Source: Escherichia coli (lineage in GTDB: Bacteria > Pseudomonadota > Gammaproteobacteria > Enterobacterales > Enterobacteriaceae). From it: 64,000 nt of DNA. Of the stretch, positions 40,133-47,700 are shown piece by piece. Below the pieces are notes generated by a model. The model saw only the letters and a list, made by a program, of their open reading frames with translations. It had not been told where the DNA came from and did no database searches. The stretch lies in the NCBI RefSeq assembly GCF_003790525.1, contig NZ_CP033635.1; one strand, written 5' to 3'. Position numbers and translations under genes: made by a program. Each line of letters begins with the position of its first letter. The stretch's first letter is position 1.

Positions 40133-40864
40133 ATGAAAAAATGGAAAGTACGTAGCGCGTTGATAGCATTAGCCGTGCTGCTGGCCGGTTGTTCCAGTAA
40201 TGCGCAGTATAATAGCAGTGCATCAGGCAATGTCGGCACCGCCTGGGGTGGGGATGTGCACTCATCGGTTCAGGGCGTATCTGCTGAACGAGTCTGGCGC
40301 GATCCGGCAGAGATGATCGTTATTAGTTATTCGACTACTGTTCCTTCGGGCTACGACCGCGTTTATAGCATTCGTATTAACGAACTTGAATATGCTATTC
40401 GCGATGGTAATTTTAATTCTCTACCTATTACGCGGGTTTATGATTCGTCAAATAATGAACCACGCTATATTGTCCATGCCAGAGTAGGAATGAATTATCA
40501 ATTATATGTCCGCAATTACAGTCGTAATACCAACTACGAGATCGTTGCTACGGTTGATGGCCTGGATGTGCTGAACGGCAAGCAAGGTTCGCTGAATAAC
40601 AACGGCTATATTGTGAATGCCGGAGATTCGTTAGCGATTAAAGGATTCCGCAAAGATAAACATACCGAAGCGGCTTTTCAGTTCGCCAACGTTGTTGATT
40701 CCTACGCAGCCAATTCGGCGCAAGGCGATGTGCGTAATACCGGTGTAATCGGCTTTGCCGCCTTTGAATTACAAGGCCCGGCGCAAAACGCGCTGCCGCC
40801 GTGCTCTGGACAAGCCTTTCCGGCGGACAACAATGGCTATGCGCCGCCACCGTGTCGGAAATAG
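40133..40864 (+). CDS. Hypothetical lipoprotein (243 aa), not recalled in K-12 at this site
   Basis: Signal peptide with lipobox LLAGCSS; Asn/Tyr-rich; no recognised domain; own terminator downstream. Confidence 0.6.
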   Translation: MKKWKVRSALIALAVLLAGCSSNAQYNSSASGNVGTAWGGDVHSSVQGVSAERVWRDPAEMIVISYSTTVPSGYDRVYSIRINELEYAIRDGNFNSLPITRVYDSSNNEPRYIVHARVGMNYQLYVRNYSRNTNYEIVATVDGLDVLNGKQGSLNNNGYIVNAGDSLAIKGFRKDKHTEAAFQFANVVDSYAANSAQGDVRNTGVIGFAAFELQGPAQNALPPCSGQAFPADNNGYAPPPCRK

Positions 40865-40999: not shown

Positions 41000-41920
41000 A
41001 TGAGCACCTTAGGTCATCAATACGATAACTCACTGGTTTCCAACGCCTTTGGTTTTTTACGCCTGCCGATGAACTTCCAGCCATATGACAGCGATGCTGA
41101 CTGGGTGATTACTGGCGTGCCGTTCGATATGGCCACTTCTGGTCGTGCGGGTGGTCGCCACGGTCCGGCAGCGATCCGTCAGGTTTCGACGAATCTGGCC
41201 TGGGAACACAATCGCTTCCCGTGGAATTTCGACATGCGTGAGCGCCTGAACGTCGTGGACTGCGGCGATCTGGTATATGCCTTCGGAGATGCCCGTGAGA
41301 TGAGCGAGAAGCTGCAGGCGCACGCCGAGAAGCTGCTGGCTGCCGGTAAGCGTATGCTCTCCTTCGGTGGTGACCACTTTGTTACGCTGCCGCTGCTGCG
41401 TGCTCATGCGAAGCATTTCGGTAAAATGGCGCTGGTACACTTTGACGCCCATACCGATACCTACGCTAACGGTTGTGAATTTGACCACGGCACCATGTTC
41501 TATACCGCGCCGAAAGAAGGTCTGATCGACCCGAATCATTCCGTGCAGATTGGTATTCGTACCGAGTTTGATAAAGACAACGGCTTTACCGTGCTGGACG
41601 CCTGCCAGGTGAACGATCGCAGCGTGGATGACGTTATCGCTCAGGTGAAACAGATTGTAGGTGATATGCCGGTTTACCTGACCTTTGATATCGACTGCCT
41701 GGATCCTGCTTTCGCGCCGGGAACCGGTACGCCAGTAATTGGCGGCCTGACCTCCGATCGCGCTATTAAACTGGTACGCGGCCTGAAAGATCTCAACATT
41801 GTTGGGATGGACGTAGTGGAAGTGGCTCCGGCATACGATCAGTCGGAAATCACCGCTCTGGCTGCGGCGACGCTGGCGCTGGAAATGCTGTATATTCAGG
41901 CGGCGAAAAAGGGCGAGTAA
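41000..41920 (+). CDS. speB: Agmatinase
   Basis: 306 aa; arginase-fold metal ligands (DAHTD, DIDCLDP). Confidence 0.95.
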
Positions 41921-42070
41921 GTCATCTGCCTGGTTGAATTTTTTACACAGTCCCTTGTCTGGCACAAGGGACTTATCATTTAAAACCTATCCTGTTAATT
42001 AAGTCATCTTTACCCTGACTGCTGTTTTTTTAATGGATTGTTATTATCACGTTTTTAATGGAATAAATAG

Positions 42071-43633
42071 ATGGAACGCACTCTTCCCTGGAAGCCCCTT
42101 CTTTGTTTGTTATTTCTTTTATCAACTGGCTGCGATAGAGCAGAAAAACAGAAAATTGCCGCACAGCTGCAACAAGACAAAGAAGCTATTTCCTCTGTCG
42201 TCAAAAAGAGTTATCGCGCATTATGTGGCCCTGAGTTTGTCACCAGCACAGATTCGCACGATCGCCTTGCGGAAATGCAGCAAGTATTTACACCTGCTTT
42301 AATGGAGCCTGTACTGAAATACTGGCAAGAGTCACCCAAAACGTGTAAACGACGTTTCCCCAGTTATAGCGATCCTTCAGCGACCTTCGTCGAAGGCGAC
42401 AAGGCGCAGATTGGTGCTTTTTTTGGTCACCAATCTTATATTGATATTCCAATGGAGTTAATCCGGCAAGGGGATGGTAAATGGAAGATTACTGCGATTG
42501 ATTTTGCATCGTTACACGAGTTTGAAAAAAACGGTCGGGTTACTGGTGAGGTGCAGAAGCAAATAGATTTGCTTAAAAAACGCTCATTCAAGCAACATAG
42601 GGATTCCCCTGTGCTGACGAGGACCGCGCCAGAGCGGGTCAGTAAGTCCCCTTTGACATCGATGGAGCAAACAGTTACGGAGCAAGACTCTTCCTGGCTG
42701 GATGTCTTACTGACAATAGGCAAATATGCCCTTTATCTGGTAGCGATAATACTTATTCTCGCCTTGGTGGCTGTTTTGTGGATTGGTTATGGCCTGGTGT
42801 TCGCCGGACATCGCCTTTTCAAAGCATCCTGTAGAGATCCCTCAATTCAAAAAATTCCTGTGGCTGAACGTTGGGCAATGGCAGTCGGCGCGCCTTATGC
42901 CATTGCGGGTAACAATCACTGGGCGCGACGAGTCGTTAATGATGATTCCGTGGAAGCAGAGAATGATTGCAAAAATGAAGTGGAGTCCCTTGCTGACATG
43001 TGGGGCGTCTTTGATCGGGATTCGTTACTTGAGCAACTCTTAGCTTTGTTTGTAGCAGGACATCGTCCAGTTTATGAAGAACAGATCAAAAACGATAGCG
43101 AAATGCCGGATGCTGAATATCGCGCGTTCGCTCAGCAATTAGCTCAGAACGCGAAATCAAGTAGCGAAGCGAAAGAGCGTTTGTGGCAGCTACAGATGGT
43201 CAGAAAAAATCGACGTAAAATATGCGATATAGATTTTTGTGCCTGGGATATGGTGCGTTTTGTCATGCTATGTAATAGCGGGGCGCAAGTGGGATACATT
43301 ACCCAGCGTGAAATGGTCGATTTTTCGATGCTGGCAGCCAGACGCGTACAGCAACATTACAGAAGCTGGCGCGAATTGGCCGGGCATTTTTTGCTGGCCC
43401 GTTGGTACTGGAAAGCAACGGATAAACGGCACCTGATTACCCATATTCTTTTTAAGAAAGCCATTACATCTTTATTAGAAGAGCAGGGGAGTCCGTGGCG
43501 TACTTTACCCTGGGATACTCCATTACCTGAAGGAACAGAGACGGCTTTTGCCTGGGCTTGTGGCGTAAGCACTGCCGATGTCGTAGAGGTGCGATCGGAT
43601 ACACCAGATAAAGCAATCTACGAAGCGAATTGA
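42071..43633 (+). CDS. Hypothetical lipoprotein/membrane protein (520 aa) with possible DUF1266-like C-terminal domain
   Basis: Lipobox LLSTGC; one central TM helix (LYLVAIILILALVAVLWIGYGLVFAG); C-terminal AWDMVR...GYITQRE...YRSWREL pattern reminiscent of DUF1266 (YbeU/YbeR-like), from memory. Confidence 0.55.
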   Translation: MERTLPWKPLLCLLFLLSTGCDRAEKQKIAAQLQQDKEAISSVVKKSYRALCGPEFVTSTDSHDRLAEMQQVFTPALMEPVLKYWQESPKTCKRRFPSYSDPSATFVEGDKAQIGAFFGHQSYIDIPMELIRQGDGKWKITAIDFASLHEFEKNGRVTGEVQKQIDLLKKRSFKQHRDSPVLTRTAPERVSKSPLTSMEQTVTEQDSSWLDVLLTIGKYALYLVAIILILALVAVLWIGYGLVFAGHRLFKASCRDPSIQKIPVAERWAMAVGAPYAIAGNNHWARRVVNDDSVEAENDCKNEVESLADMWGVFDRDSLLEQLLALFVAGHRPVYEEQIKNDSEMPDAEYRAFAQQLAQNAKSSSEAKERLWQLQMVRKNRRKICDIDFCAWDMVRFVMLCNSGAQVGYITQREMVDFSMLAARRVQQHYRSWRELAGHFLLARWYWKATDKRHLITHILFKKAITSLLEEQGSPWRTLPWDTPLPEGTETAFAWACGVSTADVVEVRSDTPDKAIYEAN

Positions 43634-43718
43634 TGCCCCAAATGATTGAGCTTGTTTAATGACTGTGACCGGCTCTGAATGAAAATTTCTCCGACATTCC
43701 TGTCGGAGAAATATGAAA

Positions 43719-44477
43719 TCACTTTATCCCATCCGCGCTCATACGATCGCGAATATGCTGGGCGCGTTCGGCGGATGCTGGATGGTCGTCAAACATTGAG
43801 CTTTGACGGCCTTCTTCCAGTTTTGCCAGTTTTTCAAAGCTGGTGGCAAGACCTGCCGGGCTGATGCCGCGTTGGCGCAGAAGATCGTAAGAATAATCAT
43901 CGGCTTCTGCTTCCTGGCGCTGGGAGAATTGCGAATTAACTAATTTCTCGCCCAGATCACCGAGTTGTGATTGAGATAAACTGCCGACAATCCCGCCCGC
44001 AGAGGCCGCAGCTACTCGTACGGCATTTGTACCAAGTGCCACCTGCATCCCTTTCTTCACATGGCCTAACGCTACGTGCCCCATCTCGTGACCGATCACC
44101 GCTTCGACTTCGTTATCTGTCATCATATCCATCAGCCCGCTATAGACGCGGATACAGCCGTTAGCCATTGCAAAGGCGTTCACATCCTTCGCCATATACA
44201 CTTTGTAATTCACCGGCTGACCGTTGATATTGTTGCCTAGCGCATTGGCAATAGTTGTCAGACGTTTAGCGTATTCGCTATTGGTTGGCGCAATCGTCGC
44301 CTTGCTGTCCATCTCCTGACATGCCTGATCGCTCAGGGTTTTCACCTGCGCATCACTCAAACTGTAAGCCTGAAAAGCTTCCGCTCCTGATGAGAGCAGT
44401 CCGTTGGAGTCCATATTCTGGCAACCGGTCAGTACCGTTGCCACGCTCATTGCTACCAATAAGGCGCGAATTTTCAT
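43719..44477 (-). CDS. loiP: Metalloprotease LoiP (M48 family lipoprotein)
   Basis: 252 aa from MKIRALLVAMSVATVLTGC; HEMGH zinc motif. Confidence 0.9.
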   Translation of the reverse strand: MKIRALLVAMSVATVLTGCQNMDSNGLLSSGAEAFQAYSLSDAQVKTLSDQACQEMDSKATIAPTNSEYAKRLTTIANALGNNINGQPVNYKVYMAKDVNAFAMANGCIRVYSGLMDMMTDNEVEAVIGHEMGHVALGHVKKGMQVALGTNAVRVAAASAGGIVGSLSQSQLGDLGEKLVNSQFSQRQEAEADDYSYDLLRQRGISPAGLATSFEKLAKLEEGRQSSMFDDHPASAERAQHIRDRMSADGIK

Positions 44478-44754
44478 GTTTTCTCTTCCGCACAAGGTCA
44501 GGATTATTCTAAAAATGCGCCGTTTGCAGGTGAATCGACGCTCAGTCTCAGTATAAGGAAAAGCGCAGCGGACGGGCGAGCAGATTGCGCAACATGCGAG
44601 CATGATCCAGAGATTTCTGAAGCGGCAAAAGGATGTTCCATGTACATGACGCGCGGCTTGCGGTAAATTGTTGGCAAATTTTCCGGCGTAGCCCAAAACG
44701 CGCTGTCGTCAAGTCGTTAAGGGCGTGCCCTTCATCATCCGATCTGGAGTCAAA

Positions 44755-46767: not shown

Positions 46768-46794
46768 AGGGCCGCGAAAGCGGCCCTTTTTTTA
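46768..46794 (+). terminator. Rho-independent terminator after tktA
   Basis: Stem AGGGCCGC / GCGGCCCT, loop GAAA, then T7. Confidence 0.8.
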
Positions 46795-47700
46795 CTTAGT
46801 AGAGATAAACGGAACTGTGCTGCCGGGGATCATGGTATCGGGCAGTTTACCGTCCCAACGTTCGGCAGTGGTGAGGGCTACAAGTCCGGGATTATCCCGC
46901 AGAGCTTCACCGCGCAGGCGGATCGCTTCTGCTTCAGCCGCACTTTTTAAACGAATAGTTTCAGCCTCTGCCGCGCCTCTTACGCGAATAGTTTCCGCTT
47001 CTGCTTTAGCTGCCGCCAGTTTACTGTCTGCTTCTGCCTGGGCCTGAGTTACCGCTATTTGCGCCTGGATTTTCTCTGTTTCCAGATTTTGCTTACGCGT
47101 GGCAATGGCGACTTCTGCTTTCATTCGGTCTTCAATCGACTTTTCATAAGCGTCAGAAAAATCAATATTTTCAATCTGGACCCCGTCAATTACCACTGGC
47201 CCAACAACGGCTTTGCGCATGGCATTTTGCAGATCCTGAACCAGTTTTGTACGATCCTGTACAGCGCTGATGGCGGTATATTGGCCGAAAACGTTCTCCA
47301 GTTGAGTTGGCAACTGACGGACAATCAGACGATCTTTTAATGCTTCAATGGTGTTGTAGGTGGTATAAACCGCGCCTGCTTCTGAAGGTTTAATGTGGAA
47401 GCTGACTGATACTGTCATTTGTGCCGGTTGCTGGTCGCGGCTGTAGGCCTGTAATCCCTGATAGACCACAGCCTGATTACGCGTGGAAATTTTCTCCACG
47501 CTTTCCATAAACGGGATCTTAAAACCCAGACCCGGCTCGGCAACTTTTACGATTTTTCCGTAGCGCAGCAAAATGCCGCGTTCACCTTCATTAACGGTGT
47601 AATACGAGAGAAATGGCAGCACAACCACGGCAAGCACGCCAATGGCGATAGCAAGAGATTTTTGTGGGCGAAATGAGGTTAATGAAACAGGTGCTTTCAT
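46792..47700 (-). CDS. SPFH/band-7 (HflC/prohibitin-like) membrane protein
   Basis: 302 aa; N-terminal TM segment, band-7 core, Ala/Glu-rich coiled-coil tail; stop codon lies in the T-tract of the tktA terminator. Confidence 0.7.
   Translation of the reverse strand: MKAPVSLTSFRPQKSLAIAIGVLAVVVLPFLSYYTVNEGERGILLRYGKIVKVAEPGLGFKIPFMESVEKISTRNQAVVYQGLQAYSRDQQPAQMTVSVSFHIKPSEAGAVYTTYNTIEALKDRLIVRQLPTQLENVFGQYTAISAVQDRTKLVQDLQNAMRKAVVGPVVIDGVQIENIDFSDAYEKSIEDRMKAEVAIATRKQNLETEKIQAQIAVTQAQAEADSKLAAAKAEAETIRVRGAAEAETIRLKSAAEAEAIRLRGEALRDNPGLVALTTAERWDGKLPDTMIPGSTVPFISTK

Follow-up and report, generated by a model that had tools for sequence, protein, structure and literature searches.

A predicted membrane-anchored DUF1266 protein encoded between speB and loiP in a minority of Escherichia coli genomes

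In the 64,000-nucleotide stretch of E. coli DNA analysed here (the window), the core genes speB and loiP enclose a reading frame that K-12 lacks at this position, raising the question of what kind of protein it encodes, how it came to be there and what the protein might do. The reading frame is intact and lies on the + strand (42071..43633), running from an ATG at 42071 to a stop codon ending at 43633, and specifies 520 residues. Pairwise dN/dS values of 0.14–0.42 between alleles indicate that it is a selected coding sequence rather than a chance ORF. The product (RefSeq WP_023141973.1, UniProt A0A229ANM8) is already named in both databases as a 'DUF1266 domain-containing protein', and the gene, though confirmed, is an accessory gene of a fairly ordinary kind that by itself overturns nothing. 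The domain is widespread in bacteria, its sequences forming about 1,540 clusters when grouped at 50% identity, among them two K-12 proteins tied to the Hsp70 HscC, and the 520-residue protein shows it in what is typically a membrane-held form. For genetics in E. coli, the gene is compact, solo, non-essential and naturally polymorphic, with natural knock-out alleles at hand.

The speB–loiP interval and its history

By pairwise alignment with K-12 BW25113, homology was lost at the speB stop codon and regained at the loiP stop codon. The segment so delimited (41922..43718, without strand) amounts to about 1,797 bp in the window, compared to 205 bp of REP/BIME-like sequence separating speB and loiP in BW25113. 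The sequence-only reading had placed the gene outside K-12 at this position, which the alignment bears out, and had called it a single-gene insertion. As a description of a single-gene presence/absence difference this holds, but the polarity it implies is doubtful.

Several observations bear on that polarity. Among 5,426 complete E. coli genomes, 211 (3.9%) carry the gene, always as a single copy and in all but one carrier (210/211) between speB and loiP. Two more distant Escherichia-like lineages, L009 and L010, about 91–93% identical to the window, have it at the same site. Synonymous divergence between alleles (dS of 0.02–0.13 among E. coli alleles and about 0.18 when these are compared with L009) is similar to that of speB and tkt. 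Neither terminal direct nor inverted repeats were found at the boundaries of the segment, and no integrase, transposase, tRNA, target-site duplication or terminal inverted repeats adjoin the gene at the locus. Since dS tracks the flanking genes, the site is shared with lineages 91–93% identical and an insertion signature is absent, the data fit an old resident gene, which most strains have lost outright or through recombination, better than they fit a recent arrival, and 'insertion' is probably the wrong polarity. Delivery by a mobile element was rejected on the lack of boundary repeats, the core-gene neighbours, the flank-like dS and the failure to find a full-length plasmid copy, plasmids carrying only distant DUF1266 domains. 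An origin in phage or defence systems was likewise rejected, PADLOC, PHROGs and phage genomes all being negative; for the latter, tblastn gave no match in 50,697 phage records.

GC3 of the gene is 0.443, compared to 0.62 for speA, speB and tkt, and the alleles are mosaic. The DUF1266 domain is the most constrained part of the protein (dN/dS 0.08–0.22, compared to 0.15–0.55 for the predicted periplasmic domain, here the ectodomain). About 90% of carriers have an uninterrupted reading frame, and about a tenth have a nonsense allele. Such alleles occur at codon 90 (EC9 group; about 4 out of 40 carriers sampled evenly) and, in L009, at codon 462. In our view this is very probably an old, low-GC Escherichia accessory gene that purifying selection maintains in a minority of strains and that has elsewhere been lost or replaced by REP elements.

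Two further candidates were set aside. A 647-bp match in strain IH5 lies within a patchwork of gene fragments and is a probable assembly artefact. A link to the gene for a 243-residue lipoprotein between speA and speB was rejected, as that gene occurs in 3,558 genomes versus 211, and in strain 2014C-3655 it is missing although the DUF1266 gene is there.

Predicted architecture of the 520-residue protein

The N-terminus, MERTLPWKPLLCLLFLLSTGC-D, matches a PROSITE PS51257-type lipobox pattern, with the cysteine at position 21 and aspartate at 22. The predicted lipoprotein signal peptide, with lipobox LSTG-C, comprises residues 1–21 (42071..42133, +), and residue 22, at position +2, is Asp. A lipobox regular expression matched LCLLFLLSTGC with Cys21 and also matched 9/9 family members, among which both Cys21 and Asp22 are invariant. 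An aspartate at +2 leads to inner-membrane retention in E. coli through Lol avoidance. Going by this pattern, Cys21 probably carries a lipid, and the protein should be retained in the inner membrane by its Asp at +2.

Residues 22–178 (42134..42604, +) form a predicted periplasmic alpha+beta domain, modelled by AF2 with pLDDT mostly of 77–96 and one dip to 64. Helices at 22–52, 62–72 and 75–87 precede four strands (99–143) and closing helices (145–178), and Cys52 and Cys92 are invariant among family members. In sequence the domain is an orphan: no homologs were found in Pfam, PDB profiles or other architectures, and the only sequences recovered with its profile were fragments and truncated alleles of the gene itself. 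The best Foldseek matches (E 0.2–3, target TM-scores 0.39–0.50) were to PARC6, Tai3, YybH and an iota-carbonic anhydrase. The ectodomain model, in which helices pack against a curved antiparallel sheet, thus comes closest, though weakly, to NTF2-like proteins such as the T6SS immunity protein Tai3 (PDB 4hz9/4hzb) and YybH (2gxf), but at these scores and with no profile similarity the resemblance is one of loose fold only.

A disordered linker follows (residues 179–208; 42605..42694, +; pLDDT 43–64), varying in length and sequence among homologs, and leads into a single predicted transmembrane helix (residues 209–243; 42695..42799, +) with a hydrophobic core at 223–243 of hydropathy 2.86. Net charge is −2 over the 20 residues preceding the core and +3 over the 20 following it. 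The AF2 model of the whole protein (pLDDT 87) has one transmembrane helix. The layout proposed from the sequence, a lipobox, a periplasmic part of about 190 residues, one transmembrane helix and a cytoplasmic DUF1266 domain, is in agreement with the AF2 model, the invariant Cys21 and Asp22 and the charge bias across the helix.

The DUF1266 domain and its relatives

Beyond the helix lies a predicted cytoplasmic, all-alpha DUF1266 domain delimited by Pfam, alignments and AF2 (residues ~262–505; 42854..43585, +). What had been described as DUF1266-like proved to be a full-length Pfam match (PF06889; model 1–175 of 175, residues 306–481, nt 42986–43513; E = 3.5e-30, 105.9 bits). The motifs AWDMVR, GYITQRE and YRSWREL, singled out earlier, are present and have family-invariant residues among them. 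All invariant and nearly invariant residues of the family, judged from alignments of 140 and 113 sequences, are carried by the protein; the conserved positions are W268, W311, G330-H331-R332, W392-D393, R396, E414, W433, R444, W447, P475 and W481. A partial match to NCBIfam NF008480 (PRK11380, a 353-residue hypothetical protein) scored 20.8 bits (E 2e-4), below the curated cut-off of 386 bits.

Modelled alone, the domain gave a pLDDT of 92.9 and a pTM of 0.90. A Foldseek search against AFDB50 returned 433 matches at E <= 0.001, with query TM-scores of 0.60–0.96; for superposition on the AlphaFold models of other DUF1266 proteins the query TM-score was 0.6–0.94. Among the matches listed, 48 of 50 were named DUF1266, PF06889 or YbeU and none had a supported function, and no solved structure resembling the fold was found. 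A literature search on DUF1266, PF06889, ybeU/ybeR and the protein accessions yielded no functional information. The sole mention of DUF1266 found there concerned EAEC 042 (locus tag EC042_RS03510), and the number of the tag suggests another chromosomal region, so that this is perhaps a ybeR/ybeU-type paralog.

A similarity to the K-12 proteins YbeU and YbeR had been noticed from the sequence, and it stands at the level of the domain: they share DUF1266, the conserved His and the W-D-x-x-R and S-W motifs. However, YbeU aligns only to residues 307–507, with 23% identity, and both K-12 proteins have 235 residues without signal peptide or transmembrane helix, whereas the 520-residue protein has a lipobox and one such helix. 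The genomic setting differs as well. In K-12 MG1655, ybeR and ybeU each share a 4-bp overlap with a downstream J-protein gene (ybeR-djlB and ybeU-djlC) and lie beside hscC and Sel1-repeat genes, an arrangement also found on an Erwinia persicina plasmid. In contrast, the speB–loiP gene is solo and uncoupled to any J-protein gene.

Other relatives are membrane-anchored DUF1266 proteins of 300–350 residues, for example from Proteus mirabilis, Photorhabdus, Xenorhabdus and Actinomyces (25–33% identity). They are likewise held in the membrane by one helix and encoded by solo genes between housekeeping genes (in Proteus, uvrB and yvcK-moaA), but they lack the lipobox and the ectodomain of about 160 residues, and their anchor is the extreme N-terminus. 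Of the relatives examined, at least 85% have an N-terminal hydrophobic segment, in predicted cytoplasmic or exported orientations, and most near relatives consist of an N-terminal transmembrane anchor and DUF1266 only. The combination of lipobox, orphan ectodomain, transmembrane helix and DUF1266 is confined to about 4 of the ~1,540 clusters at 50% identity. Intact relatives with 40–51% identity occur in Klebsiella and Hafnia-like genomes, and a Leminorella relative keeps the lipobox, transmembrane helix and DUF1266 but has just 56 residues where the ectodomain would lie. Three metagenomic proteins (P0054, P0141 and P0092) have a like layout, with an exported domain of about 110 residues, one transmembrane helix and one or two DUF1266 domains. 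Their ectodomains belong to no Pfam family and have no detectable kinship with that of the 520-residue protein (hhalign probability 0.7%), which also led us to reject them as SnoaL/NTF2-like kin. The layout of signal peptide, ectodomain, transmembrane helix and DUF1266 seems to have arisen independently.

Possible roles and flanking signals

We propose that the product is a stand-alone inner-membrane protein, probably lipidated at its N-terminal cysteine. On the periplasmic side it would expose the orphan alpha+beta domain, which is about 160 residues long and probably contains a disulfide bond; one helix would span the membrane, and the all-helical DUF1266 domain of about 240 residues would sit on the cytoplasmic face. 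The DUF1266 domain would be the working part, a membrane-tethered protein-binding module acting as an adaptor or by sequestration, and the ectodomain an addition peculiar to the lineage, perhaps serving to tune or localise the working part. We regard DUF1266 as the core because the Leminorella relative lacks the ectodomain, near relatives are anchor plus DUF1266 and this is the most constrained part. We favour stand-alone action because no gene neighbour is shared across seven contexts (E. coli, Klebsiella, Leminorella, a Hafnia-like contig, Proteus and two metagenomic). We are largely confident of the anatomy and evolutionary history as proposed. The membrane-tethered protein-binding mechanism we infer only tentatively, and for the explanation as a whole, with anatomy, history and role taken together, we would give a probability of roughly 0.35.

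An enzymatic or small-ligand-binding role for DUF1266 is somewhat more doubtful than protein binding. Here the transmembrane anchor would hold the domain against a membrane- or envelope-associated substrate, such as a lipid-linked intermediate, that occurs on either face of the inner membrane. The polar or aromatic nature of the conserved residues (H331, R332, D393, R396, E414, R444 and five Trp) is in keeping with such a role, as are the prevalence of N-terminal hydrophobic segments in cytoplasmic and exported orientations and the lack of any solved relative of the fold, which leaves room for a new activity. However, the fold resembles no known enzyme, the W-x-x-x-R motif, of which the domain consensus has two copies, resembles the signature of a structural repeat more than a catalytic feature, and biosynthetic or transport genes are not co-located.

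It is also conceivable, if unlikely, that the specialised Hsp70 HscC, working with the tail-anchored J-proteins DjlB and DjlC, has the cytoplasmic domain as its client, adaptor or regulator. The 520-residue protein would then be a form of YbeR/YbeU with an anchor of its own, bringing the HscC system to a membrane site. The overlapping K-12 gene pairs next to hscC, repeated on the Erwinia persicina plasmid, point in this direction. Yet identity to YbeU is just 23%, no J-protein or Hsp70 gene lies in any context observed for the membrane-anchored members, no fused DnaJ domain was found among the 140 relatives scanned, and many relatives are apparently exported to where no Hsp70 exists.

A bolder reading, which we consider improbable, is that DUF1266 is a new functional fold at the membrane surface, serving either to convert or bind a lipid-linked envelope intermediate present on both membrane faces or as a docking module that recruits HscC-DjlB/DjlC to membrane clients. 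If so, the protein would unite the whole in one polypeptide, a rare form whose orphan periplasmic domain governs that activity across the membrane.

Immunity or defence would place the function in the periplasmic domain instead, neutralising or sensing a T6SS effector, colicin or phage component. This would account for the patchy, strain-specific distribution, and it is consistent with low GC3, mosaic alleles, an ectodomain evolving faster than the rest and the weak structural likeness to Tai3 (Foldseek probability 0.84–0.89, target TM-score ~0.47). The odds are nevertheless poor: Foldseek E-values are 0.2 or worse, no PADLOC family matched at E <= 0.1, the only PHROG match had E 0.06, toxin, T6SS or defence genes are not adjacent and the ectodomain dN/dS is below 1. 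Moreover, the conserved part is the cytoplasmic domain, and Leminorella dispenses with the ectodomain.

Least probable of all is a decaying leftover without a current role, on its way out of E. coli, since its absence from 96% of genomes, the nonsense alleles at codons 90 and 462 and the lack of a strong promoter have to be set against a reading frame intact in most carriers despite dS of up to 0.13, low dN/dS in a DUF1266 domain that keeps the family-invariant residues, and the intact Klebsiella and Hafnia-like relatives.

Protein binding at the membrane is the role we favour, though with low confidence. In the flanks of the gene, a sequence scan placed a terminator-like hairpin with a 10-bp stem and a weak T tail just 3' of speB (41949..41973, +), separated from the DUF1266 gene by a 97-bp AT-rich stretch in which a consensus scan found no σ70 match. 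Judged from these signals, transcription could proceed via read-through or from a non-consensus promoter. A search for non-coding RNA at the locus found none. Between the convergent DUF1266 gene and loiP lies a second terminator-like hairpin, the inverted repeat I1 (43685..43712, −; 12-bp stem), with its T-run on the loiP side.

The speB–loiP interval

The DUF1266 gene (42071, ATG, to 43633, end of the stop codon; + strand; 520 aa) lies between speB upstream (41000–41920, +) and loiP downstream (43719–44477, −). The sequence-only reading held that K-12 lacks a gene here and that the product has a DUF1266-like domain, and it was right on both the facts and the family. In K-12 BW25113 the speB–loiP coding gap is only 205 bp compared to 1,798 bp in the window, and in a pairwise alignment homology ends directly past the speB stop codon and restarts at the loiP stop codon. 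The single significant Pfam match of the product is DUF1266 (PF06889; residues 306–481, model positions 1–175 of 175, E = 3.5e-30). Since the gene is missing from K-12 and the family match is clear, the observation is confirmed. The product is already in databases under a generic name: strain TUM1586 carries an identical gene (RefSeq WP_023141973.1, "DUF1266 domain-containing protein"), and the AFDB entry is A0A229ANM8. The TUM1586 locus (L002) is identical to the window across 41000–44500; its cmtB is interrupted by an IS1 element (L002 13079–14298).

The filler between speB and loiP in K-12 appears to consist of three REP (BIME-type) palindromic units. The empty site is polymorphic, with matched spans of about 1,750 to 2,132 bp (K-12, L001 3922–4126, and hits H3, H6 and H21–H26), presumably due to differing numbers of REP/BIME units. 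In strain ST2747 an IS1397-family element occupies it; REP sequences are a known target of IS1397.

Just past speB is a hairpin (41949–41973) whose T tail is weak, and another with a 12-bp stem (43685–43712) lies between the convergent ends of the DUF1266 gene and loiP. No Rfam family matched in the region and no match to the sigma-70 consensus was found upstream of the DUF1266 gene, which may be transcribed through read-through or have a promoter that departs from the consensus.

Predicted anatomy of the protein and its relatives

A layout of lipobox, periplasmic part, one TM helix and cytoplasmic DUF1266 domain had been proposed, and agrees with the lipobox pattern, the AF2 model and the charge bias of the protein. 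Residues 11–21 (LCLLFLLSTGC) match the PROSITE-type lipobox pattern, as do all nine of nine family members, with Cys21 and Asp22 invariant. An Asp at +2 acts in E. coli as the classical signal for Lol avoidance, retaining lipoproteins in the inner membrane. The full-length AF2 model (mean pLDDT 87, 140-sequence alignment) comprises an alpha+beta ectodomain (residues 22–178: helices 22–52, 62–72 and 75–87, four strands within 99–143, helices within 145–178), a disordered linker (179–208) and a single long TM helix (209–243). Net charge is −2 over the 20 residues preceding the TM hydrophobic core and +3 over the 20 following, with the same bias in seven of nine homologs, which would put the N-terminal domain on the outer side of the membrane and the C-terminal one on the inner side. 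Two ectodomain cysteines, Cys52 and Cys92, are invariant, consistent with a putative periplasmic disulfide.

The ectodomain is an orphan. It had no Pfam match and no PDB profile match, and when 5.8 billion proteins were searched with its profile it turned up only in fragments and alleles of the same gene. Foldseek gave only weak resemblances (E ≥ 0.2), to NTF2-like proteins including Tai3, YybH and iota-carbonic anhydrase and to the intermembrane-space region of PARC6. Residues 244–520 modelled alone reach pLDDT 92.9 and pTM 0.90. As DUF1266 conservation begins near residue 262, the true domain would span about 262–505, exceeding the 175-position Pfam model. Residues conserved family-wide are W268, L307, W311, G330-H331-R332, W392-D393, R396, G404, E414, W433, R444, W447, P475 and W481.

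When 1.84 billion cluster representatives were searched exhaustively by profile (E <= 0.001), about 1,540 DUF1266 clusters emerged, only about four of them with the full architecture. The architecture of the window protein is a rare variation within an established but functionally uncharacterised family. Literature searches on the family (DUF1266, PF06889), on ybeU/ybeR and on the protein accessions turned up no functional study. Three metagenomic relatives (P0054, P0141 and P0092) repeat the order of signal peptide, ectodomain, TM helix and DUF1266; their ectodomains had no Pfam match and no detected relationship to that of the window protein (hhalign probability 0.7%). Among 100,044 GTDB species, each represented by a single genome, hits were confined to Klebsiella spallanzanii (51% identity), Leminorella grimontii (62% over the C-terminal part) and a distant Actinomyces DUF1266; AFDB adds a Hafnia alvei homolog (49%). 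The Leminorella protein keeps lipobox, TM helix and DUF1266, its ectodomain being replaced by only 56 residues. Its gene adjoins a 911-aa ORF, without a Pfam match, and a ccdA–ccdB toxin–antitoxin pair (Leminorella-type contig L005, 5069–11487), all inserted between the alcohol dehydrogenase gene and selA; the same two genes flank the homolog on the Hafnia-like contig (L004).

The nearest other relatives are mostly proteins of 300–350 aa in which DUF1266 comes after an N-terminal TM helix. We classified about 122 relatives by a crude positive-inside rule: 30 appear TM-anchored with DUF1266 cytoplasmic, 30 have a signal-peptide-like segment with DUF1266 exported, 19 lack an upstream hydrophobic segment, 17 have one ambiguous N-terminal hydrophobic segment, and the remainder are multi-TM or other. 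This census suggests that the domain is overwhelmingly membrane- or envelope-associated, yet on a side that varies. Relatives P0033, P0050 and P0054 have a tandem pair of DUF1266 domains behind the TM helix. Within one domain consensus the motif W-x-x-x-R occurs twice, which hints at a possible internal repeat.

Possible roles of the DUF1266 domain

The gene encodes a selected, predicted membrane-anchored protein that acts with no dedicated gene beside its own. Pairwise dN/dS is 0.14–0.42 overall, 0.08–0.22 in the DUF1266 domain and 0.15–0.55 in the ectodomain. No partner gene is conserved across the contexts compared: speB/loiP in E. coli, marC and an MFS transporter gene on the Klebsiella-type contig, a zinc alcohol dehydrogenase gene and selAB in Leminorella and the Hafnia-like contig, uvrB and yvcK–moaA around a Proteus TM-DUF1266 relative, peptidase and aminotransferase genes around P0141, and a nearby integrase gene for P0016.

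We propose that the conserved working part would be DUF1266, a cytoplasmic domain tethered to the inner face of the inner membrane, since it is the most constrained part of the protein, is retained in Leminorella and in many TM-only relatives, and has soluble K-12 paralogs coupled to J-proteins with a tail anchor of their own in the plasma membrane (PMC8215388). It may serve as a protein-binding adaptor or sequestering module, a role we favour with a probability of roughly one in four because its sole structural echoes are helical-repeat modules, because TPR and ankyrin repeat fusions and tandem DUF1266 copies occur, and because Sel1-repeat, J-domain and Hsp70 genes lie around the paralogs.

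Conservation of His, Asp, Glu, Arg and Trp residues, together with the occurrence of DUF1266 on either side of the membrane, would also suit a fold that acts on an envelope-associated substrate as an enzyme or ligand binder, which is possible if doubtful. A specific link to HscC–DjlB/DjlC seems unlikely. In K-12 the pairs ybeR–djlB and ybeU–djlC each show a 4-bp overlap and have as neighbours two Sel1-repeat genes, ybeQ and ybeT, and hscC, which encodes an Hsp70, and an Erwinia persicina plasmid repeats an arrangement of DUF1266, large ORF and HscC; the window gene, in contrast, has no conserved partner, and its product shares only 23% identity with YbeU. A role in immunity or defence we consider improbable.

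Age and distribution in E. coli

Of 5,426 complete E. coli genomes, 211 have the gene, always as a single chromosomal copy and in all but one (210/211) between speB and loiP. Allele classes are about 100%, 98.7%, 97.8%, 97.4% and 95.7% identical to the window. The earlier proposal of a single-gene insertion holds as a presence/absence difference from K-12, but a recent insertion fits poorly. Synonymous divergence of the gene (0.02–0.13 among E. coli carriers, about 0.18 against L009) is like that of speB (0.06–0.15; 0.20–0.25) and tkt (0.07–0.14; 0.17–0.23), and the Escherichia-like lineages L009 and L010 (about 92.7% and 90.9% identical to the window across speB–tkt) both have it at the same site. 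No flanking direct or inverted repeats of the segment, no phage counterpart and no full-length plasmid counterpart were found, and GC3 is 0.443 compared to about 0.62 for speA, speB and tkt. Together these data suggest an old accessory gene of atypical composition, which has diverged in step with its flanks and which most strains lack; presence/absence polymorphism describes it better than insertion. The EC9-type allele (L019 3001–4563) is mosaic: over the first ~200 codons it equals the 2014C-3655 allele, while its DUF1266 half differs (dS about 0.18), so homologous recombination through the core flanks also shuffles alleles. As no Escherichia species representative in GTDB has the gene, it may be ancestral with many losses or an ancient polymorphism spread by recombination.

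Nonsense codons in the EC9 group (position 90; about 4 of 40 evenly sampled carriers; annotated by RefSeq as two ORFs) and in L009 (position 462) indicate that the gene is dispensable. They would also be expected of a gene in decay, which we consider the least probable reading, the dN/dS values standing beside them. In strain IH5 (L020, NZ_CP168949.1 5130797–5139443) a 647-bp piece of the gene lies amid truncated unrelated fragments (T6SS, T2SS, btuB, IS66, integrase), a patchwork suggestive of misassembly or of scrambling in this region.

Two further single genes absent from K-12 lie nearby. A 302-aa prohibitin/Band-7 (SPFH) family gene (46792–47700, −; GC3 0.459) is situated just downstream of tkt, where the K-12 tkt–cmtB gap is only about 313 bp and lacks it; it is the third low-GC difference of this kind within about 8 kb. 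The other (40133–40864, +; GC3 0.467), between speA and speB, encodes a predicted 243-aa lipoprotein (lipobox LLAGC-S) without a family match in NCBIfam, PADLOC or PHROGs. It is found in 3,558 of the 5,426 E. coli genomes, and its presence is not tied to that of the DUF1266 gene, which strain 2014C-3655 carries without it. In L009 (1–3000; GCA_946060805.1, ~93% identical) GntR-family and mandelate-racemase-family genes replace speA upstream of the lipoprotein gene and speB, so speA may be elsewhere or missing there, or the contig rearranged.
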